Part shown: positions 14,440 through 47,606 of the stretch, in pieces
Layout: each line of letters opens with the position of its first letter
How positions within the stretch are numbered: the stretch's first letter is position 1
Assembly (NCBI GenBank): GCA_965249715.1
Contig: CBDFMP010000043.1
Coordinates: 2,771-66,770, forward strand
DNA length: 64,000 bases
Direction: 5' to 3'
From: Spirochaetota bacterium
GTDB lineage: Bacteria; Spirochaetota; UBA12135; COTS27
Position numbers and translations under genes: made by a program
The notes under the pieces: generated by a model
What the model saw: the letters and a program-made list of their open reading frames with translations, nothing else
What the model was told of the DNA's origin: nothing
The model's database searches: none

Positions 14440-17004
14440 TCAATAAAAATAACGCAGGCTCAGTTCAATGCTGCGTGCAGGTTCGGTCTCCAGCGCAATG
14501 CGGTTTTCCGTTTCAAAATCATAAACCGTATATTCCAATGTCTCCAATGCAAAATCCAACAGATTATAAACATTAAGATAAATATCCAAAAACCGTGTAT
14601 GCGACAACGACACACGCCATTTAAAGCGCAGATCAAGATTCCAGCGTGCATCTTCACGCGTGCCAAATTCACCATTATACAGCAGAAGGTTATCACCGCT
14701 CACTTCATCGCGCAGCCAGGAAACGTGTGCGCCCGGCCCATCCTGATCCAAAAAGTAATCCCAGGAACCTGCCGGTTGCCCATCGCGATAGGATAAAACA
14801 AAGGCCCCCGTTAAATTCTTTAAAAACTGATAGGATGCAAACACACGCACCAAATATGAACGATCCATATCATAACGTCCCACCGGTTTGAGCAAATTAT
14901 TGGGGTCCGCCATGCTGTATTCAAAAACTCCAAGACTATTATGCACGGGACCATTGCCTTGCCGCGTGATGCCATTTAGCAGATAAGCGGTGAAAGTGAT
15001 CGCAAAAGTGTATCGTTTACCGATGCCATTAAACCCTGTTGTCGCGCCTAAGTACATGGGACTGTTATTGAACCATGTGCGCCCGCTCTCAGGAAAATAT
15101 GAGCTCGGCAAATTACAGAGCTCATATTGTTTTTCCCCATTAGTCTCATAAAAGACATTGGTGCCGTCTTCATCCCTGTATTCGCCATAATTTGTAGCCG
15201 CGCCTTTATAACAAACCCAGGGCATTTGTTTAAAAAGTCTGTAATGCCCGCCTAAGGAAAAAGTCCATGCACGCGCCAATTGCGCAGTGAAGGGAATATC
15301 TAAATAATAATAATGCGGCTGTTTAAAATTATCAGCAAGCGATTGATAGCGCCCACCTGCAGTGCTATAAGTGGCATTGGTATCTGCAGAAGTACTGTCA
15401 GTGGCTACGTAGTTAACAGTATTTTGATAAGAATCGCTTAAGAACTGAGCGTACTCCGTGGTATAAGTAGTATTTTCACGTCCCAGTAAAATTCCCAAGC
15501 TGACCCGGCTTGTCTGCAAGGGTCTGAGTTCCACTCTAAAATAAGGCGTGACTCTGGCAACGGACTCAGCCACTAATAACAGCGCGTCCAAATCAAACCC
15601 CGCCTCCACTTCCCACCAATCTGTTGTGGCATCATTAATGCTAATGCCCAGCTGGTGTGCCAAAAGTCCATAAACCGTGTCTGCTTGCTGCACATGACTC
15701 TGATAAAGCGGAACTGCATTTGTATATTGATCATCGTCTTGAAAATAAACATTGCGCGTGAAGCTCTCTTTGGCTGGACTAATGGCTACAATAGCAAACC
15801 TTGTGGCTTCCACCAGCTTAAGAAATTCGTGACGATAAACATCAAAAGCCCAGCTGAACGTAGTCTGTGGCGTGAATTCTACAATGGTGCCTGGTACATT
15901 GGTGAAAGGATAAAGCCCTTCACCGGAAACACGTAATAGATTATAAGAATTTCCAGCTGGAGCATTGCTGGTTAGCTCATGCAGCCCCAAAGTGAGTGCT
16001 ATTGTTCCGTTAAGCTTACCAGCTCTGCGTTTAGCGTAAGTGGTCACTGCCAATGAGTTAAGCCCCAGCGTCTCCTCTTCACGTAAATGAAACTCAGCTC
16101 CCCAATGCTCACGAGTGAATAAACTTGCCATAAAACCGCCAGTCCAAACATGTGTGTCCGTTGCAGCCAACGGCTGCGTGTAACCGGTTACCGTCAGCGC
16201 CGCTGCGGTTTCTTTAAAAACACTATAACCCTGATTGGCACTTTCGTGGGTAAATTGCAAAAATTGGCGTGTCCCTAGGTGATAAAACAAATCGATCACA
16301 AATGGCTGTGTGGGTTTTAAGTCCGTTTGTAAAAGCGGCTGGAGAACATGGCGTTGAAATCCTTCCAGTCCAGCAATGGCGCCCGGGCGCTCAGTAGGTG
16401 CGGGAATTTCTCTGATCTGTGCCGCACGATGAATATTGGAAAAGGCTTCCGCATAAGGTACCATGGGGCCTACTTGCCCTATGAGAATAGCGGTATAATT
16501 GAAAGCGGATGCGGTCTGTGCTGGTACGTAATTGCGTGTACCCGCTAAACCGTCTATAGCCACATCGTGACCAAGCGGCAACAGACGATACAGTGAACGT
16601 CCTGAGAAATAAGCGCTTGTTGTTTCTATTGTATTTATATAACTGCGGTTCCAAAGCCATGGATGACCATAAAGTGAATAAACTTCACCATCGGCAAAGG
16701 AAAAAGCCCCTGTGCTTTCTAATTGATAAGTGCTTTGTGGAAGTGTATGTGTGAGCAATGCGGAGAGGCGAAATGAGAGATAACGATCTGCAAAAAAGTC
16801 AAGCGGCAGCCACTCGCGCACTGCTACGGGAAGCAAAAGCTGCTGTCTGCTGCCGCGCGTATAATCATCAGCCGCTATTGGTTCACTCAGTGGAAGTGCC
16901 CATAACATGGGGGGCAGCAGGCAGCCCCAGGCTATCCATGCAAACAATGGCATTAAAAAACGCGAACAGCGCCGTAACATAAAAAACAAAAAATACAATA
17001 ACAT
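14440..17004 (-). CDS. Large hypothetical outer-membrane (beta-barrel-like) protein
   Basis: 854 aa with an N-terminal signal sequence (MLLYFLFFMLRRCSRFLMPLFAWIAWGCLLPPMLWALP), aromatic-rich alternating strands and the terminal ...SIELSLRYFY. Its 5' end is part of the tandem repeat at 16812-17901. Confidence 0.55.
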   Translation of the reverse strand: MLLYFLFFMLRRCSRFLMPLFAWIAWGCLLPPMLWALPLSEPIAADDYTRGSRQQLLLPVAVREWLPLDFFADRYLSFRLSALLTHTLPQSTYQLESTGAFSFADGEVYSLYGHPWLWNRSYINTIETTSAYFSGRSLYRLLPLGHDVAIDGLAGTRNYVPAQTASAFNYTAILIGQVGPMVPYAEAFSNIHRAAQIREIPAPTERPGAIAGLEGFQRHVLQPLLQTDLKPTQPFVIDLFYHLGTRQFLQFTHESANQGYSVFKETAAALTVTGYTQPLAATDTHVWTGGFMASLFTREHWGAEFHLREEETLGLNSLAVTTYAKRRAGKLNGTIALTLGLHELTSNAPAGNSYNLLRVSGEGLYPFTNVPGTIVEFTPQTTFSWAFDVYRHEFLKLVEATRFAIVAISPAKESFTRNVYFQDDDQYTNAVPLYQSHVQQADTVYGLLAHQLGISINDATTDWWEVEAGFDLDALLLVAESVARVTPYFRVELRPLQTSRVSLGILLGRENTTYTTEYAQFLSDSYQNTVNYVATDSTSADTNATYSTAGGRYQSLADNFKQPHYYYLDIPFTAQLARAWTFSLGGHYRLFKQMPWVCYKGAATNYGEYRDEDGTNVFYETNGEKQYELCNLPSSYFPESGRTWFNNSPMYLGATTGFNGIGKRYTFAITFTAYLLNGITRQGNGPVHNSLGVFEYSMADPNNLLKPVGRYDMDRSYLVRVFASYQFLKNLTGAFVLSYRDGQPAGSWDYFLDQDGPGAHVSWLRDEVSGDNLLLYNGEFGTREDARWNLDLRFKWRVSLSHTRFLDIYLNVYNLLDFALETLEYTVYDFETENRIALETEPARSIELSLRYFY

Positions 17005-17096
17005 AAATAATAATCCCTATCAGTTTGCCAAACCTTAACGCGAGCGCTGCAACAGCTTGCCAATGAGCGGCGAAGGTTCAAGTTTAAACGTCTTCA

Positions 17097-17357
17097 TTAA
17101 CCGCCGCCCGTCAACCGCCAAGTCTTTAACAGAAAGTGCTGCTGCTTGTTTGATAGCAGCCGCCACTCGCGCACTGCTACGGGAAGCAATAGCTGCTGTC
17201 TGCTGCCGCGCGTATAATCCTCAGCCGCTATTGGTTCACTCAGTGGAAGTGCCCATAACATGGGGGGCAGCAGGCAGCCCCAGGCTATCCATACAAACAA
17301 TGGCATTAAAAAACGCGAACAGCGCCGTAACATAAAAAACAAAAAATACAATAACAT
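17097..17357 (-). pseudogene. Decoy copy of the 854-aa gene 5' end (86-aa ORF)
   Basis: The first 65 aa are nearly identical to the 14440..17004 N-terminus. The ORF then reads into an inverted-frame cca fragment. Confidence 0.85.
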
Positions 17358-17490
17358 AAATAATAATCCCTATCAGTTTGCCAAACCTTAACGCGAGCGC
17401 TGCAAAAAAGCCTCAGCCGCGCGCACTAGCTGTACGCGCGTATTCAAAGCAAACGTCTTCATTAACAGCCGCCCGTCAACCGCCAAGTCT

Positions 17491-17658
17491 TTAACATGAA
17501 GTGCTGCTGCCGCACGTATAATCCTCAGCCGCTATTGGTTCCAGTGGAAGTGCCCATAACATGGGCGGCAGCAGGCAGCCCCAGGCTATCCCTGCAAACA
17601 ATGGCATTAAAGAACGCGAACAGCGCCGTAACATAAAAAACAAAAAATACAATAACAT
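17491..17658 (-). pseudogene. Second decoy copy of the 854-aa gene 5' end (55-aa ORF, below the track cutoff)
   Basis: My translation: MLLYFLFFMLRRCSRSLMPLFAGIAWGCLLPPMLWALPLEPIAAEDYTCGSSTSC*. Confidence 0.8.
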
Positions 17659-17688
17659 AAATGATAATCCCTATCAGTTTGCCAAACC

Positions 17689-19119
17689 TTAACGCGAGCG
17701 CTGCAAAAAAGCCCCAGCCGCGCGCACTAGCTGTACGCGCGTATTTAAAGCAGGAGTTTCCAAAACCATTTCCAACAAATGCCGCAACAGCTTGCCAATG
17801 AGCGGCGAAGGTTCAAGCTTAAACGTCTTTATTAACAGCCGCCCGTCAACCGCCAAGTCTTTAACATGAAGTGCCGCTGCTTGTTCGATGGCAGCCGCCA
17901 CACGCGCCTCAAACCGCAATAGTTCCGTTTCTTCACGTTGCAAAGTACGCGTAACCGCCAAGTGCGATGTCATCCCGCGGCCTTTCCTGTCCGCACGCAC
18001 CAATGCCAATAATAACGAAACATTGGCAAGCCCCACACGGCGCAGCCAGCGGCGTATAGTTGCGTCATTCCAGTTGTCTGTGCTGTAAAGCATATGTTCA
18101 CGTACCAAACGTGTCACACGCGCACTCAGCTTGCTTGCAAAGCGCAAGCGCCGAAGAATTTGCGCCGTCTGCTCAGCCCCTTTAACGTCATGTTGAAAAA
18201 ATGTAGCCTGTCCAGTTTCTGGCAAAACTTTGCGTGTTTGCGGCTTCGCCACATCGTGAAAGAGCGCAGCCAGCGGCAGTTCCAGCGCCTGCCGCAACTC
18301 GTGCTCCGCTGCCAGCTTATGTTGATAATCCGTGACAGCAGCCAACACAGCCAGCGTGTGTTCGTACACATCATAGGCATGAAAGGCATTTTGTGACACA
18401 CCCTGCAGTGTCGTTAGTTCCGGGAGAAATTCCTGTAAAAGACCGCTAACATTAAGGGCGCGCATGCCTGCAACAGCATTCTGCCCGCTAAGCAATTTAC
18501 TCAGCTCATCACGAATGCGCTCTACGGCTATGCGCTTCAACTGCCCGGCCATCGCCTGCATCGCCTGCAAACAAGCTGTTGTCAGTGTAGCATCCAACTG
18601 TGCCACAAAACGACAAGCACGCATCATCCTGAGCGCATCTTCTGTAAACCGTTCTTGGGCATTGCCAATAGTGCGAATACACCGAGCTTGCAGATCTGCA
18701 CGTCCGTTAAAAGCATCGAGCACTTCCTTAGTTTCAGGGTGATAGGCAAAAGCATTAATGGTAAAATCGCGCCGCTTCAGATCTTCAATAAGCCGCCGCG
18801 TAAAAAAAACCTCACTTGGTCTGCGTGCGTCGTGATAAGTCCCCTCTGTGCGATACGTTGTGACCTCATAAGCATCGCCATCCACTAAGAGGGTTAACGT
18901 ACCGTGTGCAATGCCCGTAGGCAGCGCAGCCGGGAACAGCTGCTTCAGCTCCTGAGGCGTGGCACTGGTGGCAAAGTCAATATCACCACCGCGGCGTCCC
19001 AAAAGCTGATCGCGCACAAAGCCGCCCACAACGTACAGCTCATACCCTGCCGCAGCCACCCTGTGGTATAACCGCATGGCACTGGCTTGCAGAGCTATGG
19101 GAAACTTAAATGCTTCCAC
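17689..19119 (-). CDS. cca: CCA-adding tRNA nucleotidyltransferase with HD domain
   Basis: 476 aa with the Pol-beta-type motif GGFVRDQLLGRRGGDIDFAT, RRDFTINA, and an HD region (LFHDVAKP). Confidence 0.85.
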   Translation of the reverse strand: MEAFKFPIALQASAMRLYHRVAAAGYELYVVGGFVRDQLLGRRGGDIDFATSATPQELKQLFPAALPTGIAHGTLTLLVDGDAYEVTTYRTEGTYHDARRPSEVFFTRRLIEDLKRRDFTINAFAYHPETKEVLDAFNGRADLQARCIRTIGNAQERFTEDALRMMRACRFVAQLDATLTTACLQAMQAMAGQLKRIAVERIRDELSKLLSGQNAVAGMRALNVSGLLQEFLPELTTLQGVSQNAFHAYDVYEHTLAVLAAVTDYQHKLAAEHELRQALELPLAALFHDVAKPQTRKVLPETGQATFFQHDVKGAEQTAQILRRLRFASKLSARVTRLVREHMLYSTDNWNDATIRRWLRRVGLANVSLLLALVRADRKGRGMTSHLAVTRTLQREETELLRFEARVAAAIEQAAALHVKDLAVDGRLLIKTFKLEPSPLIGKLLRHLLEMVLETPALNTRVQLVRAAGAFLQRSR

Positions 19120-21966: not shown

Positions 21967-24228
21967 ATGGGTACCACTACCTTAGATACTATCAATACAC
22001 TTACCTTAGCGCTGGCTGCTGGAATTTTAAGTATTATTGTTGCACGGCGTCTCCAGCTGGTCCCTATTGTCTTACTTCTGGTCACTGGCGTGGTCATTGG
22101 TCCGGAGGGGCTAGGATGGCTGCATCCTAAAAAGCTCGGCGAAACCCTGGAAATTCTCCTGCAAGTAGGAATTGCCATCATCCTTTTTGAAGGCGCCCTC
22201 ACCCTCAACTACAACGAATATAAAAAAGCCGGTAATATCATCTTCAACCTGCTCTCCTTCGGCATCCTGCTCACCTGGCTGTTAAACGCTTTCGCCATCG
22301 TTCTATTTTTTCAGTTTCCGCTTCGTTACGCACTGTTTCTGAGCAGTATCATTGTTGTGACCGGGCCAACCGTTATTATGCCGCTACTCCGCCGCATGAA
22401 TCTTAACCACAATCTCACCCATATTTTGCATTGGGAAGGAATTCTTATCGATCCCATTGGCGTCTTTCTGGCGATCTTTTGTTTTGAGCTGCTCATTAGC
22501 GGCGGCGAAGGTGTTGTGATTGTCAAGCTGTTCACGCGTTTGGGTATTGGCATTATCGTTGGCGCGCTCTTTGGTATGCTGGGCGCTACCGCACTCAATC
22601 GCCGCTGGATTCCGCAAGAACTGCACAATAGCTTCATTCTCATGTGGGCACTGTTAACGTTTGCCAGCTGCAATATCATCCTTTCCGAATCAGGTCTGCT
22701 TGCAGTGGTGGTTGCAGGCATTGTCTTGGGTTATTACAAAAAGGTGTCATTGGAAGAAATTAAAAAATTCAAACTTGATCTGACTGAGATCTTTACTGCC
22801 ATTATCTTCATCCTGCTGTCCGCTGACCTCAGCTTCACCAACATCAAACGTGTCCTTCCGCAGGGCATTTTTTTGATCTGTTTCATCCTGTTTGTCACAC
22901 GTCCGCTCAGTATCTTTATCTGTTCGCTTGGCAGCAAACTCAGCATACGCGATAAACTCTTTCTTTCCTGGGTAGCGCCACGCGGCATCATCGCTGCTTC
23001 CATGGTCACATTATTCTCCTATTCGCTCAATTCTGAAACTGAGCTTGCCCCCGCCATTGCCAAAGAGCTTTATTTTATGGAAACCTTTGTCTTTGCTGTT
23101 ATTGCTGTTACCGTTGTTTTCCAAGGTACGACTGCGCCCTTTGTTGCCAAAGCTCTTGGTGTCAAACGCGATCTGGCGCGCAATTGGGTCATTGTTGGAG
23201 CACACGAACTCAGTGCTACCATTGCAGAATATCTCATGTCCATGGGCAAGGAGGTCATTCTCTTAGACAGCAATAAAACCAAGCTTAATATTTATGCTCA
23301 ACGCGGCATTGTCACCGAACACGGCAATAGTCTTGCCTACGATATTTTCGATCGTGAAAATTTTATCCACACAGGACGTGTTCTTGCCATCACCGATAAC
23401 ATGGAACTCAACGTATTGATCTGCCAGCATTGGAAGAAAGTGGTGCGCCCGGACGGACTTTACAACTGGAGTGGGCCAGCAACAGCCACAGCCAACATCA
23501 ATACCATAGCCTCCACCGCCGTGTGGCAACAGCTAGCCAAACCCAGTATCCTCGAAAGTCAGCTCAGCAACCAAGAACGCTCACTGCTCATCAAGGCACC
23601 GGCAGAACTCAATGCACAGGAGCGCGAGCATGCAGTACCGCTCTTGGCCATCCCCACAAACGGTGATGTGCTGTTTTCACCCGATTTAAACAATAAAACC
23701 CTTGCCCCGCTGCTGACAAACAAATGGCTGCTGCTGGTCAAAGTTAGTTTTTCATTGCAAAGCTTTATCAAAGCCGGTTATCTTGCCGTCCTCAATACTG
23801 CCCCACTCACAAGTGAAATTGTTTATCGGCACGTTTTAACACAAGTTAAAACACCGCTCGGGCTCACCGCAAAGACCAGTCGCGATGACATCCTCCAGCA
23901 TTTACAGGAGCAAGAACAAGTTAAAAGTGTTTGCATAGGCAATCAAGTCGCCATTTTTCCAACATTGCAAAAGGCCTTTACAGAGCCGCTTGTAACCGTA
24001 ATCACCACACGCAGCGGTGTGGACATGCACGCATATGATAAAAAACCTATCCGTATCTGGTTCTTTATTTTTGCACACAATGCCGATTCGCTGCGTTATC
24101 TCTCATTAATTTCTCATATTTCTAAAATTGTGACCGATGAATCAACAAGAAACAAATTGCTTGCTGCTGATACCACCGTTATGCTGGAACAAGCATTATT
24201 TCAAGCATTGGCGCAAAAAAATATTTGA
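21967..24228 (+). CDS. CPA1-family Na+/H+ (cation/proton) antiporter with C-terminal regulatory domains
   Basis: 753 aa with about 12 TM helices in the N-terminal two thirds. These are followed by a TrkA-N/KTN-like segment (WVIVGAHELSATIAEYLMSMGKEVILLDSN) and a PTS-EIIA-2-like tail. The last 227 bp lie in the first 371-bp repeat unit. Confidence 0.8.
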   Translation: MGTTTLDTINTLTLALAAGILSIIVARRLQLVPIVLLLVTGVVIGPEGLGWLHPKKLGETLEILLQVGIAIILFEGALTLNYNEYKKAGNIIFNLLSFGILLTWLLNAFAIVLFFQFPLRYALFLSSIIVVTGPTVIMPLLRRMNLNHNLTHILHWEGILIDPIGVFLAIFCFELLISGGEGVVIVKLFTRLGIGIIVGALFGMLGATALNRRWIPQELHNSFILMWALLTFASCNIILSESGLLAVVVAGIVLGYYKKVSLEEIKKFKLDLTEIFTAIIFILLSADLSFTNIKRVLPQGIFLICFILFVTRPLSIFICSLGSKLSIRDKLFLSWVAPRGIIAASMVTLFSYSLNSETELAPAIAKELYFMETFVFAVIAVTVVFQGTTAPFVAKALGVKRDLARNWVIVGAHELSATIAEYLMSMGKEVILLDSNKTKLNIYAQRGIVTEHGNSLAYDIFDRENFIHTGRVLAITDNMELNVLICQHWKKVVRPDGLYNWSGPATATANINTIASTAVWQQLAKPSILESQLSNQERSLLIKAPAELNAQEREHAVPLLAIPTNGDVLFSPDLNNKTLAPLLTNKWLLLVKVSFSLQSFIKAGYLAVLNTAPLTSEIVYRHVLTQVKTPLGLTAKTSRDDILQHLQEQEQVKSVCIGNQVAIFPTLQKAFTEPLVTVITTRSGVDMHAYDKKPIRIWFFIFAHNADSLRYLSLISHISKIVTDESTRNKLLAADTTVMLEQALFQALAQKNI

Positions 24229-24246
24229 CCCCAAATAACAAAACTT

Positions 24247-24480
24247 GTGATAATCCTGAAAAGTTTACCTGAGCTCGCAAAAATGTGTATTGCCGGTCGG
24301 ATGGCGGCTGAATTACTGGTTTATTTGGGAGAACATGTCAAAGCGGGCATCGCCACTATGGATTTGGAAGTCTCACCACACGCAGCGGTGTGGACATGCA
24401 CGCATATGCTAAAAAACCTATCCGTAGCGGATTTTTTATTTTTACACACAATGCCGCTTCATTGCGTTAGCTCTCACTAA
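24247..24480 (+). pseudogene. Chimeric decoy ORF: first 42 codons of map fused out of frame to an antiporter-tail copy
   Basis: 77 aa reading MIILKSLPELAKMCIAGRMAAELLVYLGEHVKAGIATMDLEV, then unrelated sequence. Confidence 0.85.
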
Positions 24481-24617
24481 TTTCTCATATTTCTAAAATC
24501 GTGACCGATGAATTAACAAGAAACAAATTGCTTGCTGCTGATAGCACTGTTATGCTGGAACAAACATTATTTCAGACATTGGCGCAAAAAAATATTTGAC
24601 CCCAAATAACAAAACTT

Positions 24618-24851
24618 GTGATAATCCTGAAAAGTTCACCTGAGCTCGCTAAAATGCGTATTGCCGGTCGGATGGCGGCTGAATTACTGGTTTATTGGGG
24701 AGAACATGTCAAAGCGGGCATCGCCACTATGGATTTGGAAGTCTCACCACACGCAGCGGTGTGGACATGCACGCATACGCTAAAAAACCTATCCGTATCT
24801 GGTTCTTTATTTTTGCACACAATGCCGCTTCATTGCGTTAGCTCTCACTAA
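24618..24851 (+). pseudogene. Second chimeric decoy ORF (map 5' fragment)
   Basis: 77 aa with the same architecture as 24247..24480, offset by 371 bp. Confidence 0.85.
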
Positions 24852-24988
24852 TTTCTCATATTTCTAAAATCGTGACCGATGAATTAACAAGAAACAAATT
24901 GCTTGCTGCTGATAGCACTGTTATGCTGGAACAAACATTATTTCAGACATTGGCGCAAAAAAATATTTGACCCCAAATAACAAAACTT

Positions 24989-25741
24989 GTGATAATCCTG
25001 AAAAGTTCACCTGAGCTCGCTAAAATGCGTATTGCCGGTCGGATGGCGGCTGAATTGCTGGTTTATTTGGGAGAACATGTCAAAGCGGGCATCGCTACTA
25101 TGGATTTGGAAGTCCTCAGCCGCGCGTGGATTCACAAACACAAAGTGCGCTCGGCTACGCTGAATTATAAAGGCTTCCCCGCCACCATCTGCACTTCCGT
25201 TAACAACGTCGTTTGCCATGGCATCCCCAGTCATACTGCCATTTTAAATAAAGGCGATATTATTAACATTGACGTCACATTGATTGTCAACGGTTACCAT
25301 GGCGACGTTTCACGCACCTTTATCATTCCGCCCGCCCCACCGCACGTTCACGCGCTGGTCACGCGTACCGAACAGGCGCTCATGCACGGCATTAATGCCA
25401 TTACAGCCGGCAAATCGATTAACGTTATTGGCACTGCCATTGAAAAATTTATTAAACCGTTTCACTATGGCATTGTCAGTGCCCTCTGCGGGCATGGCAT
25501 TGGCGAAGCCTTTCACGAAGATCCTTTTGTCATGCACATTAAACAGCGCCGCAAGGGCGCACGGCTGCTCCCGGGGATGACCTTTACTGTGGAACCGATG
25601 ATCAATGCCGGCTCCGCGCAAGTTTATACTTCGGCTGAAGATGGTTGGAGTGTCTTCACACGCGATGACATGTTGTCTGCACAGTTTGAACATACCATTG
25701 CTGTGCTTGAGCAAGGTTGTGAAATTTTAACCGCAAGCTAA
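24989..25741 (+). CDS. map: Methionine aminopeptidase, type I
   Basis: 250 aa with a GTG start. The N-terminus aligns with the E. coli MAP N-terminus. Metal-ligand blocks are present: CHGIP, NIDVT, GYHGD, GHGIG..FHE, FTVEPM, QFEHT. Confidence 0.95.
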   Translation: MIILKSSPELAKMRIAGRMAAELLVYLGEHVKAGIATMDLEVLSRAWIHKHKVRSATLNYKGFPATICTSVNNVVCHGIPSHTAILNKGDIINIDVTLIVNGYHGDVSRTFIIPPAPPHVHALVTRTEQALMHGINAITAGKSINVIGTAIEKFIKPFHYGIVSALCGHGIGEAFHEDPFVMHIKQRRKGARLLPGMTFTVEPMINAGSAQVYTSAEDGWSVFTRDDMLSAQFEHTIAVLEQGCEILTAS

Positions 25742-37700: not shown

Positions 37701-38003
37701 CATAAAAACACGCAAGGTCATAAAATTGTCAAAGGTCTCAGACGTGTAGGAAGCAATGCCCGTAATCTCTTCCAACTCTATTTCCAAGGGCACCGTCACT
37801 TCTGCTTCCAATTCCTGAGCCACCTGTCCGCCCACTGCAACCGAAATTAATAGCTCACGCAAATCCACCTGTGGAAATGCATAACGACGCATGCTTAAAA
37901 CAGACATCACGAAAGCTCCCAGAATTACCAAGAGCAATGCGTATTTAACGTTTTTGTGCTGAATTAAATAGCTAACTAATCTGTGAACAATATCTTTAAT
38001 CAC
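34728..38003 (-). CDS. RND-family efflux transporter, inner-membrane subunit (AcrB/AcrD/AcrF family)
   Basis: 1091 aa with a GTG start. It shows the 12-TM/2-large-loop RND architecture and a conserved TM4 region (GLIVDGAIVISENI). No adjacent MFP or OMF gene is in the window. Confidence 0.85.
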   Translation of the reverse strand: MIKDIVHRLVSYLIQHKNVKYALLLVILGAFVMSVLSMRRYAFPQVDLRELLISVAVGGQVAQELEAEVTVPLEIELEEITGIASYTSETFDNFMTLRVFMADGASLPEVKDDIRAAIARVPVLVSTNSRLIIRELKSENIPALSLGIVSTQGHLLRAREHAVALKELIAMLPDVGTVDEINIPPQEIHILLDRDKLYQSRFSLLEINQAVRAATQAFFISPIPEPAANNATTITAYTKSIYPDDLENAVLRLVPEGTNVREVRLGELGKVVPALAPTLREVHRYNGTPGFGLNVILKGSADIITTVNEVKAVIDEYVADSANADLQLVTVFDGSEETRTRLTTVYENAALGAILVLLVLLIFLSRKVAFWTTVGIGTSLAITFILLNLIGISLNSISLCGIIISLGLIVDGAIVISENIYSFKEAGYPANTAALLGLENMLKPLAIMQLTTMAAFAAIFLIEGSVGAFAREIPIVTISMLAASLLDAIILLPAHLGISSWKTRQPARAAASHAPATAMANGSADGIVYEIEETHSRAEFQRLSFVLKLLLFCQLRLIGVLRAVYLKVLKQLIKRPYLVLGMFLTLAAPAATWLLLNTDFELFPEEQANIIEFEGAVAAAPTIAATSSVVAELEAIIEELPPGVVNNYYAIVGHGAPDKFWLVVQLTAFGNRDMTILAVRDFVFNRVAERELNFATFAHYIDTDGILRYGHPVEVSVIGADDTRRAELVTQLTKDMEELGLKEIRSDLHAFRSDRKVELLSNTIAFAGIDPQALGATLRGAFSGEVVASVRDQDTHTNFRVKLDTDTIVTADPLANILVRDRRGVNVELSELATLSEQTALVSIYHHNGERQNTIYARFDPELTTANSVYKELRTKYSDFATEHPGFELVISGKSEKSYSTLNAVIFSLIAATFFIYLFLVFQFNNFIQPLITVAAIPLSILGALAAFYFHGVKFSVFAMLGLLGASGVVVNVSLVMIEFMNRLMKKQGQQTVKTTTVDFRTTLTQAALSGAGSRFRPIFITTLTTLVGIMPTVYGFINPADSFIYPMTLAMFWGITVGTLASLGMIPLVYWIERDCAKWVVQRLRKKSFH

Positions 38004-38062
38004 AACAGCTACTTCTCACTTAAGCTTAAATGAAATGATACAAAATGTGTACCATAAAGTAT

Positions 38063-38071
38063 ATTATAACA
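38063..38071 (-). promoter_or_regulatory. Extended -10 element (TGTTATAAT) about 60 nt upstream of the RND pump start; duplicated at 38470-38478
   Basis: The minus strand reads gaTGTTATAATat in both repeat copies. Confidence 0.4.
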
Positions 38072-38098
38072 TCGACTGAGTAAGCTTGCTTCAGTTGG

Positions 38099-38353
38099 TT
38101 ATGGTGATGTGAAGTTCAGTGGAAACGGCACACGGCAGCTATTGATAAAATCACGTGCTGTCATCAACCGTCTGCCCGGCTGTTTCAATTGCACTAGCTC
38201 AAGCGGCGGTTCAGCTGCACCCAGCCACTGCATAAAGGGCAACGGACTCAGCAGCTGCAGCTCTGCCAACAAATAAGGCTGTGTTTCGATCCTGCAGACA
38301 ATGCCATTGCCATTGCCATCGTCAAAGGCGCGCAGTTTACATTGCAAGCTCAC
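38099..38353 (-). pseudogene. Truncated duplicate of the fmt C-terminus (84-aa ORF)
   Basis: SLQCKLRAFDDGNG...LSPLPFMQWL|GAAEPPLELVQLKQPGRRLMTARDFINSCRVPFPLNFTSP matches the fmt C-terminus with a 40-aa internal deletion. Confidence 0.9.
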
Positions 38354-38505
38354 TGCCGAATCGTTGACAGCAAACTATGTTGCGCGTGAACTGTACTTGG
38401 ACGAATGAGTGACCGCTGTTTCATCCTTAAGCTTAAATGAAATGATACAAAATCTGCACCATAAAATATATTATAACATCGACTGAGCAAGCTTGCTTCA
38501 GTTGG

Positions 38506-39540
38506 TTATGGTGATGTGAAGTTCAATGGAAACGGCACACGGCAGCTATTGATAAAATCACGTGCTGTCATCAACCGTCTGCCCGGCTGTTTCAATTGCA
38601 CTAGCTCAAGCGGCGGTTCAGCTGCACCCAGCCACAGCAGTAATTTTCGTTCCTTACCGTACGCCCATTTTAAAATACGCGCACCCGCTGCCGCAACGTT
38701 TGTTTGCGGCAGCTGGGCAACCAAGGCCTCAGTGTTATCCTGCTGCTGCAGCCACTGCATAAAGGGCAACGGACTCAGCAGCTGCAGCTTTGCCAACAAA
38801 TAAGGCTGTGCTTCGATCCTGCAGGCAATGCCATTGCCATCGTCAAAGGCACGCAGTTTACATTGCAAGCTCACTGCCGAATCGTTGACAGCAAACTGTG
38901 TTGCGCTTGAACTGTACTTGGGCGAATGAGTGACCGCTGTTTCATCCTGCGGCAAAGCCGTTAAACTTTGCCAGCGTGTGAAAAACGGCACCAATGTTTG
39001 CCGCGTGAGGGCAAGCGCTTGCTGCATACACTCAGTGTAACCCTGCTGCCCCAGCGCCCATTCACGCTGCAAGACAATAGGCCCCGCATCCAAACGCCGA
39101 ACAATTTTCTGAATACTGATACCGCTCTTGGCATCACCGCTTAGGATAGCTGAACGCAAGGGCGCTGCGCCGCGGTGGCGCGGCAAAAGCGAAAAATGAA
39201 CATTGAAACAGCCGCCGTGCGGCACATTAAAAAATGCTTGCGGCAAAAGTTTGCCGTAAGCCACAATGAACCCGAAATCAACGGCATAATGCGCCAACGC
39301 GGAGCAGGCGGCAGCGTCAATATGCTCAGGTTCATGACAAGGAATGTCCAAACGTCGGGCAAGCTGCCCAACAGCCGTAGGAGCAAGCGTACTGCGCCTG
39401 TCGCGCAATGTCCGCCTGCGCAGCGGTGCCGTCCACACAGCACGCACAGTGGCTAAGCGCTGCGTGACAATAAATTCTAAAAGCTCCGCCGCCAGCAGCG
39501 GTGAACCCATATAAACAATTACCGGGCGTCTGGGCAACAT
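38506..39540 (-). CDS. fmt: Methionyl-tRNA formyltransferase
   Basis: 344 aa with an N-terminal formyltransferase fold and the motif FNVHFSLLPRHRGAAPL. The C-terminal domain is somewhat longer than usual. Confidence 0.9.
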   Translation of the reverse strand: MLPRRPVIVYMGSPLLAAELLEFIVTQRLATVRAVWTAPLRRRTLRDRRSTLAPTAVGQLARRLDIPCHEPEHIDAAACSALAHYAVDFGFIVAYGKLLPQAFFNVPHGGCFNVHFSLLPRHRGAAPLRSAILSGDAKSGISIQKIVRRLDAGPIVLQREWALGQQGYTECMQQALALTRQTLVPFFTRWQSLTALPQDETAVTHSPKYSSSATQFAVNDSAVSLQCKLRAFDDGNGIACRIEAQPYLLAKLQLLSPLPFMQWLQQQDNTEALVAQLPQTNVAAAGARILKWAYGKERKLLLWLGAAEPPLELVQLKQPGRRLMTARDFINSCRVPFPLNFTSP

Positions 39541-39566
39541 GCTGCAACCTGCTTAGAACAGCACTT

Positions 39567-44305: not shown

Positions 44306-44381
44306 GTGCTAAGCTATTTATTTATTTGGCTTCATTTGCCAGTCCATTCAGATTAATAAAAGACACAGCGCACCCTTTCAT

Positions 44382-45017: not shown

Positions 45018-45147
45018 TCGCCCAAACTTCGCGTTTTTTCAGTTTTATTCACAGCAACGCTGATCGTCACGCCAGCGAAGTGTTAACAAAAGCTTAGTCC
45101 GGGAATTATTGGCAGCCGGTAATTCCATATTCATCCTTCATTGATCC

Positions 45148-46215
45148 ATGAACGTATTAAAAACCATTTTAACCAAACACAAGGCATTTAAATCCAAGCT
45201 GGCAGAGCCTGCTTTCATGAAAGATCAACAAAGCTATAAAAAGGTGCTTAAAGATTTTCAAAGATTAACGCCTATTGTCACGGCTTATGAAGCACACGAG
45301 CAGGTGCTTACTAAGATTAAGGACTATGAAGCCATGCTGCAAACAGAACAGGATACGGACGTACGTAAGCTGATTGTCATGGAATTGGAAAATGAAAATG
45401 CACAAGCAGAAAAGCTGGCGGAAGCAGTTAAGCTGGCGCTTGTCTCCAGCGAAACAGAGAATTTTGAAAGCCTCATCATGGAGATCCGTGCTGGAACAGG
45501 GGGTGAAGAAGCATCGCTTTTTGCAGCAGACCTTGTCCGCATGTACGCCAAACTTGCCGAACGGCGCAAATGGCAGATGGAGATCTTAAATCAATCGCTA
45601 AGTGGAGTAAAGGGTTATAAAGAAGTGAGTTTCATGATCAAAGGCAAAGAAGCTTATGCAACGCTGAAACATGAAACCGGCACGCATCGCGTGCAACGCG
45701 TGCCTGAAACAGAATCCAGTGGCCGTATCCATACTTCAGCGGTAACCGTAGCGGTCCTGGGTGAAGTGCCCGCAGAAGAATTGGAAGTGCGCATGGAAGA
45801 CCTTAAAATAGACACTTATCGCGCCAGCGGTGCCGGCGGGCAGCACGTGAACACCACCGACTCTGCCATTCGCATCACACACTTGCCTTCCGGCATTGTG
45901 GTCACGTGTCAAGATGAACGCTCTCAGTATAAAAACAAGGAACGGGCGCTAAAAATCCTCCGCGCGCGTCTCTACAACGCTCAGCAAGAAAAGCTTCGCA
46001 GCGAACGCGCAAACGAACGCAAACAACAAGTAGGCTCCGGTGACCGTTCAGAAAAAATTCGTACTTATAATTTCCCACAAGGACGTGTAAGCGACCATCG
46101 CACCCAAGTCACTACTTATAATTTACAAGCGTTTTTAAACGGCGACTTGGACGAGATCATCACGTCGCTCAAAGAGCATGAAAAAACACTTGCGCTTAAG
46201 AATTTTAAATTTTAA
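45148..46215 (+). CDS. prfA: Peptide chain release factor 1
   Basis: 355 aa with the GGQ motif (SGAGGQHVNTT) and an RF1-type PxT tripeptide (PET) in RVQRVPETESSGRIHTS. Confidence 0.95.
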   Translation: MNVLKTILTKHKAFKSKLAEPAFMKDQQSYKKVLKDFQRLTPIVTAYEAHEQVLTKIKDYEAMLQTEQDTDVRKLIVMELENENAQAEKLAEAVKLALVSSETENFESLIMEIRAGTGGEEASLFAADLVRMYAKLAERRKWQMEILNQSLSGVKGYKEVSFMIKGKEAYATLKHETGTHRVQRVPETESSGRIHTSAVTVAVLGEVPAEELEVRMEDLKIDTYRASGAGGQHVNTTDSAIRITHLPSGIVVTCQDERSQYKNKERALKILRARLYNAQQEKLRSERANERKQQVGSGDRSEKIRTYNFPQGRVSDHRTQVTTYNLQAFLNGDLDEIITSLKEHEKTLALKNFKF

Positions 46216-47098
46216 CAGCTGGCAGCCCTAAGCCTTTTCCAATGTTGCAAGAATTTGCAGATAGTTCCTATACCGCTGGTTGTGCAGCTTACCAAGTTCA
46301 ACCGCCGCGCGCACTGCACAATTGGGTTCATGGTCGTGCAGACAATTCCTGTAAGTACAAGCAGCTGCCAAAGCTGTAAATTCCGGATAACAGGTTTTTA
46401 GCTCCTGACGCATAACGTCCGTAAAGGCAAGTTCTTTAAGCCCGCGGGCAGATCAAAAACCTCGCCGCCGTCACCGAGTTCATGCCGATGCACCCGTGTA
46501 GTGGTGTGGTGTCCGCGCCGCGTGAACGTAGAAACCGTTTTCACAAGTCCACGGTATATTTTGGATCAACGCGTCTGAGCAAGCTGTAAATTGCGTAAAG
46601 GCGTCTTGCCCGAGTTCATGCCGATGCACACCAGAATGCCCAACAATAACACTGCGCTTGCACTCAAAAACTTTAGCAGCTGACAGCCCTAAGCCTTTTC
46701 CAATGTTGCAAGAATTTGCAGATAGTTCCTATACCGCTGGTTGTGCAGCTTACCAAGTTCAACCGCCGCGCGCACTGCACAATTGGGTTCATGGTCGTGC
46801 AGACAATTCCTGTAAGTACAAGCAGCTGCCAAAGCTGTAAATTCCGGATAACAGGTTTTTAGATCCTGACGCATAACGTCCGTAAAGGCAAGTTCTTTAA
46901 GCCCGGGCAGATCAAAAACCTCGCCGCCGTCACCGAGTTCATGCCGATGCACCCGTGTAGTGGTGTGGCGTCCGCGCCGCGTGAACATAGAAACCGTTCT
47001 CACAAGTCCACTGTATTTTGGATCAACGCGTCTGAGCAATGCCGTCTTACCCACACCAGAATGCCCAACAATAACACTGCGCTTGCGCTCAAAGACTT
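46211..47098. repeat. Tandem duplication of the prfA-stop / rsgA-3'end region (about 461-bp degenerate copy + about 426-bp intact copy)
   Basis: cagctg(g/a)cagccctaagccttttccaatgttgc... starts at 46216 and 46677 (offset 461). The degenerate copy carries small indels and a patchwork insert at about 46582-46627. Confidence 0.9.
46228..46413 (-). pseudogene. Duplicate fragment of the rsgA 3' end (homology continues to about 46672)
   Basis: The 61-aa ORF is identical in sequence to the RsgA C-terminus (…CTYRNCLHDHEPNCAVRAAVELGKLHNQRYRNYLQILATLEKA). Confidence 0.9.
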
Positions 47099-47540
47099 CA
47101 CGGCGTAATTTAATAAAAACCTTATCGCCACGCCCTAGCGCAGTAGCTTCAGCGGCAAAAATTTTGGCTGGAGGATTGGCGACAACATAAGTTTGGTATG
47201 GCAATCCTGCATAAACAGCTTGTGCCGCTGCAATTGCTTCTGCAGAAACAATATCACGCTTCGTAAAAATGATAACAGCCTGTTTGCCCGACCAATGCGC
47301 AAGCGTCAGAAAGCGATCGATCAGCCCGGTTTTCAGCTCAGGAAGTGCCAATGCTGCAACAATAATAAGTTGATCTACATTTTTAACAAGGAAATTAACA
47401 TAAGCAATTTTTTTGTGCGCAATGCGTAAGCGAAAGTAGGCAGAATCGTGTTTGCGGCCGCCTGTATGCAATTCCTGTGTATCGGTGGCAAATTTAGCAA
47501 TAAATTTTTTTCTCGCACGCATTTTGCAAAGAGACTTCAA
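46689..47540 (-). CDS. rsgA: Ribosome small-subunit-dependent GTPase A (short N-terminus)
   Basis: Circularly permuted GTPase with NVDQLIIVAAL, TKRDIV, GHSGVGKTALL and the C-terminal zinc knuckle CTYRNCLHDHEPNCAV. The likely start is ATG at 47522 (MRARKKF...). Only about 46 aa precede the NVDQ motif, versus roughly 80 in B. subtilis YloQ as I recall it. Confidence 0.85.
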   Translation of the reverse strand: MKSLCKMRARKKFIAKFATDTQELHTGGRKHDSAYFRLRIAHKKIAYVNFLVKNVDQLIIVAALALPELKTGLIDRFLTLAHWSGKQAVIIFTKRDIVSAEAIAAAQAVYAGLPYQTYVVANPPAKIFAAEATALGRGDKVFIKLRREVFERKRSVIVGHSGVGKTALLRRVDPKYSGLVRTVSMFTRRGRHTTTRVHRHELGDGGEVFDLPGLKELAFTDVMRQDLKTCYPEFTALAAACTYRNCLHDHEPNCAVRAAVELGKLHNQRYRNYLQILATLEKA

Positions 47541-47606
47541 TATTTGGCAGCTGGGAGAGACTTCAATACTTGGCAGCTGGGAGAGACTTCAATGTTTGGC
47601 AGCTGG
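47529..47606. repeat. 26-bp tandem repeat x3 covering the stop codon of the heptose-pathway gene and the rsgA upstream region
   Basis: aagagacttcaatatttggcagctgg / gagagacttcaatacttggcagctgg / gagagacttcaatgtttggcagctgg. Confidence 0.95.

Follow-up and report, generated by a model that had tools for sequence, protein, structure and literature searches.

Old tandem duplications across gene boundaries in a marine spirochaete

Tandem duplication followed by random loss is an established model for animal mitochondrial genomes, and large tandem repeats of Ehrlichia ruminantium were reportedly described by Collins et al. in PNAS in 2005 (102:838) and by Frutos et al. in J Bacteriol in 2006 (188:2533). 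A further paper (PMC3287509) invokes slipped-strand mispairing for the E. ruminantium repeats, gives tandem-repeat contents by TRF of 0.38% for E. coli, 1.6% for wMel and 6.3% for E. ruminantium, and presents VNTR-105 and VNTR-141 of Wolbachia as intergenic arrays with periods of 105-141 bp. In Candidatus Portiera of the Bemisia, Singhiella and Aleurolobus whitefly clade, genome instability has been linked to the loss of dnaQ (PMC7821994).

The 64-kb stretch of DNA analysed here (the window) contains four large head-to-tail duplications (435, 371, 521 and 426 bp; two or three copies) and one array of three 26-bp units, and all five units span a gene boundary at which the ancestral spacer was only 14-95 nt. 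The nearest genome is that of COTS27, a subcuticular symbiont found in crown-of-thorns starfish; it counts 1650 genes over 2.68 Mb and lacks transposable elements (PMC7444263).

Detection and layout of the five loci

A first-pass annotation had reported junction-spanning repeats at five places; TRF, a repeat search and sensitive self-blastn between them recover all five where it had put them, and the five junction strings that it quoted all occur in the sequence. TRF, run with a period limit of 500 bp, returned 24002-25114 (period 371, 3.0 copies, 95% matches), 17200-17752 (period 301) and 47530-47606 (period 26, 3.0 copies), and missed locus 3 because its period of 521 exceeds that limit and locus 4 because its copies differ by indels. 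The repeat search and self-blastn placed all four large loci, at 16802-17907, 24002-25114, 38005-38948 and 46138/46207-47098. Unit sizes, taken from gapped alignments of the copies, are 435 bp in three copies (locus 1), 371 bp in three copies (locus 2), 521 bp with a deleted copy of 407 bp (locus 3), 426 bp with a copy of 461 bp (locus 4) and 26 bp in three copies (locus 5). About 2.3 kb of the window is redundant repeat DNA, close to the 2.4 kb first claimed. The number of repeats is far above chance: the same pipeline, run on 50 kb of E. coli K-12, yielded no self-blast repeat and a single TRF row, compared with 19 and 18 for the window. DNA- and protein-level searches found no further junction duplication, older or younger, elsewhere in the window. 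The proposed architecture recurs at all five places, of which locus 5 belongs to a different size class.

Locus 1 comprises the following features.

14440-17004, minus strand: 854-aa secreted or outer-membrane-like protein, intact (ORF, translation)
16813-17165, minus strand: copy 1, 353 bp (alignment to the reconstructed 435-bp unit, tblastn)
17166-17510, minus strand: copy 2, 345 bp (alignment)
17511-17901, minus strand: copy 3, 391 bp (alignment; TRF period 301 over 17200-17752)
17689-19119, minus strand: CCA-adding enzyme, intact, 476 aa (Pfam PolyA_pol, PolyA_pol_RNAbd, HD)

The 854-aa protein has no Pfam family match and a COTS27 ortholog 51.5% identical over 833 aa, and the ortholog of the CCA-adding enzyme has 478 aa and 53.7% identity. 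In copy 1 the 854-aa gene has its functional 5' end, with the first 64 codons, and a 30-nt spacer separates this from a decoy CCA-enzyme tail from which 81 bp between GCAA repeats have been deleted. In copy 2 the 5' end is a decoy that retains its start codon (65 aa, 97% identical); beside the spacer there is a CCA tail, likewise a decoy, that lacks 69 bp between AAGC repeats. Copy 3 has a decoy 5' end from which the first 41 nt and one codon are missing, the spacer, and the 3' end of the CCA-enzyme gene in functional form. Between copies 2 and 3 the junction, GCTGCTGC followed by CGCACG, has 6-8 nt of microhomology and could equally well be a second event at microhomology or the scar that a 61-bp deletion, bounded by TGCTGC, left across the standard junction.

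At locus 2 the unit is repeated three times without change of length.

21967-24228, plus strand: Na+/H+ exchanger with TrkA-N and PTS EIIA domains, intact, 753 aa (Pfam)
24002-24372, plus strand: copy 1, 371 bp (TRF, alignment)
24373-24743, plus strand: copy 2, 371 bp (TRF, alignment)
24744-25114, plus strand: copy 3, 371 bp (TRF, alignment)
24989-25741, plus strand: methionine aminopeptidase (Map), intact, 250 aa, GTG start (Pfam Peptidase_M24)

The exchanger (COTS27 ortholog 758 aa, 57% identical) has its last 75 codons in copy 1, where this functional tail is followed by an 18-nt spacer and a decoy Map start with S to L and R to C changes. Copy 2 joins a decoy exchanger tail to a decoy Map start, and copy 3 joins a decoy exchanger tail to the functional start of Map, whose 250-aa COTS27 ortholog (67% identical) aligns from residue 1. 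The decoy tails of copies 2 and 3 have two D to A changes and a Y to TAG change in common, at positions where copy 1 and COTS27 have the same residue. Since copies 2 and 3 have decay mutations in common, both descend from one already decayed copy, and their 16 common derived states imply a two-step history.

Locus 3 lies upstream of an AcrB-family transporter gene.

34728-38003, minus strand: AcrB-family transporter, intact (Pfam ACR_tran)
38021-38427, minus strand: copy 1, 407 bp (repeat search, self-blastn, alignment)
38428-38948, minus strand: copy 2, 521 bp, the full unit (alignment)
38506-39540, minus strand: methionyl-tRNA formyltransferase (Fmt), intact, 344 aa (Pfam Formyl_trans_N; COTS27 ortholog)

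Only the upstream spacer of acrB falls within the unit, the coding sequence lying outside it, and the unit starts on the palindrome TTAAGCTTAA. Copy 1 combines the functional AcrB upstream spacer with a decoy Fmt tail (by tblastn with Fmt residues 198-344) that lacks 120 bp between CAGCCAC repeats and shows a 6-bp CATTGC slippage, and copy 2 combines a decoy spacer with the functional Fmt 3' end.

Locus 4 separates two convergent genes, and locus 5 lies at the other end of rsgA.

45148-46215, plus strand: peptide chain release factor 1, intact (Pfam PCRF, RF-1)
46212-46672, minus strand: locus 4 copy 1, 461 bp (self-blastn, alignment; broken frames by tblastn)
46581-46629, minus strand: patchwork segment in copy 1 (exact-match search, alignment)
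46673-47098, minus strand: locus 4 copy 2, 426 bp (alignment)
46689-47522, minus strand: RsgA GTPase, intact, 277 aa from the ATG at 47522 (Pfam RsgA_GTPase)
47530-47606, minus strand: locus 5, 26-bp unit in three copies between rsgA and hldE (TRF)
47589-48731, minus strand: HldE-like cytidylyltransferase fused to a HAD phosphatase, intact, 380 aa (Pfam CTP_transf_like, Hydrolase_like; COTS27 ortholog)

The first 4 nt of the locus 4 unit take in the stop codon of the release factor 1 gene. In copy 1 the RsgA 3' end is a decoy, broken by two +2 frameshifts and containing a patchwork in which 47 nt stand in place of 15 nt, stitched from three nearby pieces; the 12-mer, 9-mer and 20-mer recur about 210, 174 and 136 nt leftward (towards lower plus-strand coordinates), in the same order and orientation as in the insert. 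Copy 2 holds a 16-nt spacer and the functional 3' end of RsgA (COTS27 ortholog 68-70% identical). The third copy at locus 5 provides the last six HldE codons and the stop.

Age of the copies and their setting

Copy-to-copy divergence ranges from 2.0 to 5.9% with transitions predominating, no pair lying below 2% and no event above 6%, and the arrays are therefore old biological tandem duplications of gene-boundary sequence rather than assembly artefacts. The units consist of local gene sequence, each fragment matching the adjoining intact gene and its COTS27 ortholog. In the outer copies both flanking genes are intact and full length relative to COTS27, and the damage is in the inner copies: a premature stop that is shared, frameshifts, and 61-120 bp deletions with direct repeats of 4-7 nt at their ends. 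This contrast is a signature of selection. Two observations of the first-pass annotation are thus borne out: that one intact copy of each gene survives at the outer edges with decayed copies inside, and that the copies, with their private deletions, are old and real.

Comparison of the same loci in the relative, a check that had been proposed, found the orthologous COTS27 junctions to be single-copy, with spacers of 117, 313, 49 and 40 bp. COTS27 spacers are crowded with 10-60-bp arrays, one of which (40 bp, 5.9 copies) takes in the stop codon of Fmt and the 11 codons before it, and about 5% of the 43 kb examined is short tandem array. Such arrays would represent the same tendency, suggesting a clade-level proneness to tandem repeats. 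Gene order follows COTS27 over about 35 kb of the window (two flanked loci), except for an insertion at 51771-56215. Most spacers in the window are tiny (17-130 bp), the organism has about 45% GC, the stretch 5059-9926 is devoid of intact genes, and one methylase is split in two; persistence of the arrays fits a host-associated, pseudogene-bearing lineage.

Permutation gave a chance of 0.0013 that every unit would contain a gene boundary when all five are counted and a modest 0.037 for the four large ones. These values are compatible with the earlier argument that only boundary-straddling events survive, the logic of which is sound given the short ancestral spacers. Two further suggestions fared less well. 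A preferred size of about 0.4 kb would be drawn from four events, and survival by itself gives larger units an advantage, given that a gene boundary falls within about 45% of random 400-bp units as against 3.5% of 26-bp units; no copy pair below 2% divergence supports a duplication process that is unusually active now. Tandem repeats make up 4.3% of the window by TRF and about 8% with the two gapped loci added, and either a high formation rate or weak purging in a degrading host-associated genome may account for this abundance. A single past episode of duplication, or assembly collapse of identical copies, may offer alternative histories.

Junction anatomy and the origin of the duplications

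Exact microhomology at the five primary junctions is 5, 0, 2, 2 and 0 nt. The junctions had been said to share no motif and to show 1-8 bp of microhomology; the first part stands, no shared breakpoint motif being significant (P = 0.43, 0.47 and 0.06 for k = 5, 6 and 7), but the primary junctions span 0-5 nt and 6-8 nt occur only at the second junction of locus 1. Given that the 7-mer TGGCAGC lies near the breakpoints at three of the five loci (the borderline P = 0.06) and that palindromes (TTAAGCTTAA, CAGCTG) occur at three unit starts, some local sequence preference is possible. Deletions in redundant copies are bounded by GCAA, AAGC, TGCTGC and CAGCCAC. As first noted, mobile-element hallmarks are missing: none of the 10 flanking genes tested against Pfam has a transposase or integrase domain, the units have no terminal inverted repeats, and self-blastn found no dispersed copies of them in the window.

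Alignment confirmed both the deletions at short direct repeats and the patchwork insert, which fit slippage or template switching. The duplications are probably (at roughly 0.7) by-products of replication errors, neutral or of slight cost, in a spirochaete genome that is compact and host-associated. Judging from junction anatomy, the polymerase or nascent strand would switch template with 0-5 nt of homology over a distance of about 0.3-0.5 kb, or 26 bp in one case, giving a head-to-tail duplication. Where both breakpoints fall in different genes or spacers, as in the pattern found here, every gene would keep an intact copy, and selection would remove any event lying within a gene; because the ancestral spacers are so short, each surviving unit would carry a gene 3' end, and usually also the 5' end or upstream region of the neighbour. 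Two-copy arrays could then expand to three copies in register, by unequal exchange or slippage between existing copies, a step that is in part evident from the copies. The redundant halves decay through the stop codon, frameshifts and short-repeat-bounded deletions (61-120 bp) that the alignments reveal, with purifying selection holding the outer halves intact. The arrays would last to 2-6% divergence because purging is weak in the lineage, likely reasons being that its effective population is small and, possibly, that recombination or repair is reduced.

In sequence alone, replication slippage and end-joining break repair look alike. That the duplications arose from break repair by end joining is unlikely. 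Two of the five primary junctions have 0 nt and two have 2 nt of microhomology, which is typical of end joining, templated patchwork inserts also arise in break repair, and, of the five deletions in loci 1 and 3, four (81, 69, 120 and 3 bp) have lengths divisible by 3, a bias that in pseudogenes has been ascribed to alternative end joining (PMC6054270). However, every deletion sits between short direct repeats, the 6-bp CATTGC change is classic slippage, and none of the locus 4 indels (+2, +2, +32) is divisible by 3. Serial template switching at a fork fits the patchwork pieces, which run collinear in direct orientation and come from no more than about 210 nt away. The window contains no Ku or LigD gene, which at a scope of 64 kb says little.

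It is less probable still that selection maintains the arrays for the extra promoters or start regions that they provide, or for insulating tightly packed genes from one another. A promoter-like match, TTGACC-18-tGATAAT, is present in all three locus 2 copies within 60 nt of invariant surroundings, the entire 78-nt acrB upstream spacer is duplicated at locus 3, and the decoy starts of the 854-aa gene and Map retain their start codons. However, the -10 hexamer of this match, the only triplicated one, overlaps the GTG start codon of Map and, given that this start aligns with COTS27 residue 1, the match is unlikely to be Map's promoter; the multiplication of promoters or starts floated in the first-pass annotation thus found no positive support. 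Furthermore, promoter-like sites are only mildly commoner than in shuffled sequence, inner copies decay by copy-specific stops, frameshifts and large deletions as unconstrained DNA does, locus 4 lies between convergent genes with a 3' end alone duplicated, and the orthologous COTS27 junctions work as single copies.

False tandem duplication of divergent haplotypes is a known assembler failure and the source is an uncultured-type contig, but metagenomic strain variants laid in tandem, or repeats wrongly expanded, are a very improbable explanation: allelic variants of working genes would each be intact, whereas here the outer halves are full length against COTS27 and the inner copies are broken by frameshifts, by private 61-120 bp deletions and by a shared stop in place of a conserved Tyr, the 16 derived states at locus 2 imply two steps, substitutions are transition-biased, and the same architecture occurs at five independent loci.

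Comparison with known repeat systems

The mitochondrial model shares with the window slippage-type duplication across gene boundaries, followed by decay of one redundant copy of each part. In mitochondria whole genes are duplicated and random loss can alter gene order, whereas in the window only gene ends are duplicated, so that the outer copies alone can stay functional and gene order cannot change.

The Wolbachia VNTRs, as presented in the available part of PMC3287509, resemble the window arrays in their long periods, in internal deletions in some periods and in having their origin ascribed, as a proposal, to slippage; the triggers suggested there are hairpins or palindromes, and the window has TTAAGCTTAA and CAGCTG at three unit starts. 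In that text the Wolbachia periods are 98-99% identical with copy number differing among close strains, pointing to active turnover or concerted evolution, and the units are described as intergenic repeats with hairpins, fragments of flanking genes going unmentioned; the window copies, in contrast, are 2-6% diverged and made of flanking-gene ends.

Portiera is likewise a symbiont lineage with intergenic regions that grow and become filled by direct and tandem repeats, and in both cases purifying selection acts on genes and repeats gather outside intact coding sequence. Portiera, however, has massive rearrangements, mostly microsatellite-type repeats and a genome of about 0.3 Mb that is 40% intergenic (PMC7821994), whereas the window has conserved synteny, most spacers of 17-130 bp and units that are 0.4-kb gene-boundary segments.

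The likeness to E. ruminantium drawn in the first-pass annotation is apt. Both have head-to-tail repeats whose units reach a few hundred bp and lie within intergenic regions or cross them, gene fragments truncated to 5' and 3' pieces with lowered coding density, no involvement of a mobile element, and a comparable tandem-repeat load (6.3% of the E. ruminantium genome in PMC3287509, 4.3-8% of the window). E. ruminantium differs in being an obligate intracellular alphaproteobacterium of 29% GC, whereas the window is spirochaete-like at about 45% GC with an extracellular starfish symbiont as nearest relative. Copy number in E. ruminantium varies within and between isolates and many arrays are larger (mean 4.8, up to 65), unlike the 2-3 copies of the window with their 2-6% divergence and private indels, and the translocations and inversions reported there have no counterpart in the window, where gene order is as in COTS27. 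In summary, the duplication pattern is one already known from E. ruminantium, and this marine spirochaete is a new example of it.

Tandem duplications at gene junctions

All five tandem-repeat loci described in the first-pass annotation were recovered within the window by Tandem Repeats Finder (TRF), a repeat search and sensitive self-blastn, and every junction string it quoted was found in the sequence. Head-to-tail units of 435, 371, 521 and 426 bp, in two or three copies, lie at four gene junctions, a fifth site has a 26-bp unit, and the redundant DNA of the loci totals ~2.3 kb. Loci and copies are numbered from lower to higher coordinates.

Tandem-repeat loci of the window
16802-17907, locus 1, 435-bp unit in three copies
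24002-25114, locus 2, 371 bp, 3.0 copies with 95% matches (TRF)
38005-38948, locus 3, 521-bp unit in two copies
46207-47098, locus 4, 426-bp unit in two copies, between convergent prfA and rsgA
47530-47606, locus 5, 26 bp, 3.0 copies (TRF)

The only further local repeats in the 64 kb are a fragmented pentapeptide-repeat region (5275-6158) and a 59%-identical pair (54071-56024). The identical pipeline, applied as a control to 50 kb of E. coli K-12, returned 0 self-blast repeats and one 48-bp TRF row, compared with 19 self-blast and 18 TRF rows for the window. Among the smaller TRF rows, which are few, three lie wholly within genes and have periods divisible by 3 (21, 21 and 18), and the four with periods not divisible by 3 are all intergenic or at gene ends. 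Tiny tandem repeats also occur at the hldE start/gatB stop (48708-48746, 16 bp x2.4) and at the start of the 10513-10806 ORF (10805-10837, 17 bp x1.9). In the window's other long spacers, blastn and tblastn found no junction duplications that were older and further decayed. Rfam and ARAGORN placed no RNA genes within the arrays; their hits in the window, the 16S rRNA gene and a single tRNA-Pro, lie outside them.

The flanking genes named by Pfam encode a CCA-adding enzyme, a Na+/H+ exchanger with an EIIA domain, methionine aminopeptidase (Map), an AcrB-family transporter, methionyl-tRNA formyltransferase (Fmt), release factor 1 (PrfA), RsgA and an HldE-like bifunctional enzyme; no Pfam family was found for the intact secreted or outer-membrane-like 854-aa gene (14440..17004, minus strand) on the lower-coordinate side of locus 1. 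Before duplication, the spacers of loci 1-5 measured 30, 18, 95, about 15 and about 14 nt. The locus 1 unit comprises the first 64 codons of the 854-aa gene, the 30-nt spacer and the last 71 codons of the CCA enzyme, with the genuine start of the 854-aa gene in copy 1 and the genuine CCA tail in copy 3. The redundant parts between them carry deletions of 81 bp (GCAA repeats), 69 bp (AAGC repeats) and 3 bp, and a further 61 bp are absent between TGCTGC repeats at the junction of copies 2 and 3. Given that this loss spans the boundary of the two copies, the second junction that the first-pass annotation took for a separate event may be a deletion scar rather than another duplication: the string is present as quoted, and the 61-bp deletion would explain it equally well. 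In copy 2, the decoy start of the 854-aa gene opens one chimeric ORF, which keeps a hydrophobic, signal-peptide-like N terminus and beyond it enters the decoy CCA tail out of frame.

17097-17357, minus strand, chimeric 86-aa ORF

Locus 2 consists of three copies of exactly 371 bp, each with the last 75 exchanger codons, the 18-nt spacer and the first 42 Map codons. The locus 3 unit joins 78 nt of the acrB upstream spacer to the last 147 Fmt codons, and in its copy 1, the lower-coordinate one on the acrB side, 120 bp are missing between CAGCCAC repeats and there is a 6-bp CATTGC slippage. At locus 4 the unit is a 16-nt spacer plus the last 136 RsgA codons; the decoy copy has two +2 frameshifts and a 47-nt patch in place of 15 nt, the pieces of which (a 12-mer, a 9-mer and a 20-mer) recur ~210, 174 and 136 nt away in identical order and orientation. 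At locus 5 the last copy of the 26-bp triplet supplies the final six HldE codons and stop. By tblastn, 11 secondary partial matches were found, each adjoining its parent gene, and their translations show decay. Of the five decoy deletions of loci 1 and 3 (17035-17688 and 38021-38427), four have lengths divisible by 3 (81, 69, 120 and 3 bp) and the fifth is of 61 bp. Pseudogene deletions have elsewhere been reported to favour multiples of 3 (PMC6054270); the indels of locus 4 (+2, +2, +32) depart from this pattern, which overall is not significant.

Origin, survival and age of the arrays

Given the low-homology junctions, the deletions between 4-7-nt repeats, the hexamer slippage and the collinear templated patchwork, the tandem units would have arisen by replication template switching or slippage, for which little or no homology is needed, and the repeats themselves would have driven later in-register expansion. 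Break repair by end joining could yield equal products. The exact microhomology amounts to 5, 0, 2, 2 and 0 nt at the five primary junctions, so that the first-pass annotation, which gave 1-8 bp, was right about the scarcity of homology and not about its exact extent; the locus 1 junction has an additional longer imperfect match, GGCAGCC..AC[T/A]CGCGC. As that annotation had also claimed, the junctions share no significant motif: the breakpoints have no more k-mers in common than randomly placed loci do (k = 5, P = 0.43; k = 6, P = 0.47; k = 7, P = 0.06). TGGCAGC lies near breakpoints in three of the five loci, at a borderline P = 0.06. The locus 3 unit starts on a perfect 10-bp palindrome, TTAAGCTTAA (38020-38029 and 38428-38437), and the palindrome CAGCTG occurs near the unit starts of loci 4 (46217-46222 and 46678-46683) and 5 (47547-47552); at these three loci palindromes may be a minor local trigger.

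The junction-spanning layout would require no special targeting, provided that the survivors are those duplications whose two breakpoints fall in different genes or spacers. All genes stay intact only when the breakpoints are so placed, and with spacers of only 14-95 nt every survivor would therefore carry gene ends. The boundary permutation proposed in the first-pass annotation was run on the window only, by placing units of the observed sizes randomly on its collapsed gene map: a gene boundary fell inside ~39-50% of 0.4-kb units and only 3.5% of 26-bp units, and the joint probability that every unit contains a boundary was 0.0013 with all five counted and 0.037 with the four large units alone. 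Given that survival itself favours larger units in this calculation, the apparent 0.4-kb preference is partly an effect of the filter, and the intrinsic size preference put forward earlier is not supported. The earlier reading is supported in its core, namely tandem duplication of the slippage type, filtered by selection and involving no mobile element; its extension to the whole genome is not supported.

An alternative is that the arrays are maintained by selection as they multiply promoters or starts, for which there is no positive evidence. One feature in its favour is a promoter-like match with an extended -10, TTGACC-18-tGATAAT, present in all three locus 2 copies (24225-24254, 24596-24625 and 24967-24996) within a 60-nt stretch that is invariant among them. 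However, the -10 of this match runs over the GTG start of Map, and that start aligns with the first residue of the protein from COTS27 (AP019861), the nearest relative and a crown-of-thorns starfish symbiont, and the 21 promoter-like matches exceed the shuffled counts (12.7 +/- 4.2 and 13.8 +/- 3.9) by only about two standard deviations. Furthermore, the inner copies decay differently from each other, and locus 4 duplicates a 3' end only, between convergent genes. A terminator scan gave counts at the level of shuffled sequence.

Insertion of a mobile element (IS, MITE or REP-like) was rejected, the units being local gene ends orthologous to single-copy COTS27 sequence. The absence of a mobile element claimed earlier was borne out: the units have no terminal inverted repeats, self-blastn found no dispersed copies of them elsewhere in the window, and Pfam detected no transposase or integrase domain in the 10 flanking genes tested. 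Contingency or phase-variation loci were likewise rejected, on account of the unit sizes (371-521 bp), the 2-6% divergence, the private deletions and the housekeeping nature of the flanking genes; the only short unit is that of the 26-bp x3 array of locus 5, which lies between a stop codon and the start of the next gene and whose copies also differ. False duplication by the assembly was ruled out by the shared premature stop, the frameshifts and the 61-120-bp deletions, all confined to redundant halves. Had an assembler lined up strain variants in tandem, each would be an intact allele, whereas the disabling changes occur here only in the redundant halves.

Judged from the sequence, the duplications are real and old rather than artefactual. 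The outer gene copies at every locus are full length relative to their COTS27 orthologs, the orthologous COTS27 junctions are single-copy, and pairwise divergence between copies over all loci is 2.0-5.9%, with transitions in the majority. At locus 2 both decoy exchanger tails carry the same D->A, D->A and Tyr->TAG changes, at residues that are identical in copy 1 and COTS27, and they match COTS27 at 39 and 40 of 75 positions, against 43/75 for copy 1. Given that private differences number 16, 6 and 3 in copies 1, 2 and 3, this array would have been enlarged in two steps, the second of which duplicated an already decayed unit in register. The second step may have been an unequal exchange inside the unit's final 86 nt, since copy 1 there matches the shared state of copies 2 and 3.

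The current high activity proposed in the first-pass annotation is not supported, as no copy pair at any locus is less than 2% divergent. The redundant 2.3 kb holds four deletions of 61-120 bp, and the data fit either an episode in the past or a steady state in which erosion is fairly fast. Young events could also be hidden if the assembly collapsed identical copies. The 2-6% divergence and the private indels argue against rapid turnover of copy number.

The COTS27 relative and the surrounding DNA

In the genome collection the sole relative was 'Spirochaetes bacterium COTS27', at 49% amino acid identity over a lineage-specific 794-aa protein. Two metagenome scans gave no usable relative, the first returning none and the second one 28%-identical EIIA-domain match, and in an RsgA search relatives beyond COTS27 were <=46% identical. 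According to its description, COTS27 represents an order of 'marine spirochetes' and has 1650 genes in 2.68 Mb, with no transposable elements (PMC7444263). Two of its loci (L001 and L002, 43 kb) retain the gene order of the window around all five repeat loci, and order is kept in the window regions overlapping 14-26 kb and 38-60 kb, with the exception of one insertion. The window's duplications are absent from COTS27. Its RsgA (L002 10001-11062, P0003) has 353 aa, compared with 277 aa in the window, the surplus being an 85-aa Ser/Pro-rich low-complexity insertion at residues 122 to 206.

The COTS27 spacers measure 300-1200 bp and are filled with 10-60-bp tandem arrays, which make up ~5% of the 43 kb sampled; one 40-bp x5.9 array (L002 20556-20791) starts within fmt, whose final 11 codons and stop it repeats. 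In the searched passages of the COTS27 paper, tandem repeats are mentioned once, as a cause of assembly gaps in genic regions, and spacer repeats are not mentioned (PMC7444263). Given that the spacers of this relative are also packed with tandem arrays, one of which includes the fmt tail, proneness to tandem duplication looks like a trait of the clade, with unit sizes differing between the two lineages. A further step, which is tentative and on balance rather unlikely, would be that the 'marine spirochete' order shares an inherited state of replication or repair that makes tandem duplication the main route of spacer growth. If so, this state would be visible in COTS27 in the arrays of 10-60-bp units and in the window lineage in the gene-boundary units of 0.4 kb; it would constitute a third phylogenetically independent case beside Ehrlichia and Portiera, and it would offer a natural system for a compact bacterial genome gaining non-coding DNA, decoy starts and chimeric ORFs such as the 86-aa ORF.

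The tandem-repeat load of the window, which covers 64 kb of the genome, is 4.3% by TRF and ~8% with two gapped loci added, against about 0.1% in the E. coli control. In published TRF figures, E. coli stands at 0.38% and Wolbachia wMel at 1.6%, and the 6.3% of E. ruminantium was in 2012 called the highest load reported for bacteria (PMC3287509).

Other parts of the window hold decaying DNA. The ~5 kb from 5059 to 9926 contain no intact gene and have the look of a pseudogene graveyard, or of foreign DNA that has decayed. At 5216-6158 there are fragmented pentapeptide-repeat ORFs whose repeats measure 15 bp and 168 bp, followed by short broken ORFs at 34-36% GC (6-10 kb). The stretch 51771-56215 (34.5% GC) is an insertion relative to COTS27, where gatA and a DUF779 gene adjoin, and is probably a decaying restriction-modification island.

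Features of the insertion at 51771-56215
inside 51771-56215, 705-aa ORF with no Pfam family
54071-54766, decayed 59%-identical second copy
54865-55209, HNH endonuclease
55343-56103, N6/N4 DNA methylase split in two ORFs

Given the region with no intact gene at 5059-9926 and the low-GC restriction-modification remnant with its split methylase at 54-56 kb, the window suggests that purging is weak in this host-associated lineage. Genes for FliL, MotB and MotA lie at 631-2862. A complete 16S rRNA gene (60516-62051, minus strand; Rfam, 1464 bits) has a glycosyltransferase gene directly downstream, and the ORFs 61324-61614 and 61958-62371 were discarded as spurious as they fall inside it. No 23S or 5S rRNA gene was found anywhere in the window; since the 16S gene stands alone, the rRNA genes are unlinked. 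GC skew is negative in every 2-kb bin and the minus strand holds most genes, which together place the window within a single replichore with genes mostly co-oriented.

Significance and comparison with known systems

At each locus the original junction, the junction made by duplication and the decay that followed are all preserved, and hence the events can be ordered and the mechanisms read directly. If the pattern is genome-wide, the lineage offers a clean natural record of the way in which spacer length in a compact bacterial genome is shaped jointly by tandem duplication, by selection against disrupted genes and by deletional decay. A phenomenon known mainly from obligate intracellular Rickettsiales and insect endosymbionts would then reach an under-studied order of marine host-associated spirochaetes. 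In practical terms, such arrays swell the counts of 'hypothetical' ORFs, confuse start-codon annotation, as decoy starts are 90-97% identical to the real ones, and break short-read assemblies; they are also good candidates for strain-typing markers.

The closest known match is provided by the large tandem repeats of E. ruminantium, which reportedly have caused genes to be duplicated and truncated and differ in copy number. The likeness drawn in the first-pass annotation holds for unit size and position and for the truncated fragments of flanking genes: as in E. ruminantium, the window units are roughly in the 100-500-bp range, are arranged head-to-tail at or across intergenic regions, and hold 5' or 3' parts of the flanking genes, leaving truncated fragments beside an intact copy. 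The E. ruminantium arrays are actively variable in copy number, within or between isolates; the window copies are 2-6% diverged with private indels, which speaks against rapid turnover. In Portiera of whiteflies, loss of dnaQ has been linked to expanded, repeat-rich spacers (PMC7821994); this is a looser analogue. Its hallmark rearrangements are absent from the window regions at 14-26 kb and 38-60 kb, where COTS27 order is kept apart from one insertion. The VNTRs of Wolbachia have near-identical periods and, in the available part of their description, no flanking-gene fragments are mentioned (PMC3287509), whereas the window copies have diverged by 2-6%. In summary, the arrays are a fresh example, in an under-studied spirochaete clade, of genome dynamics that are already known.
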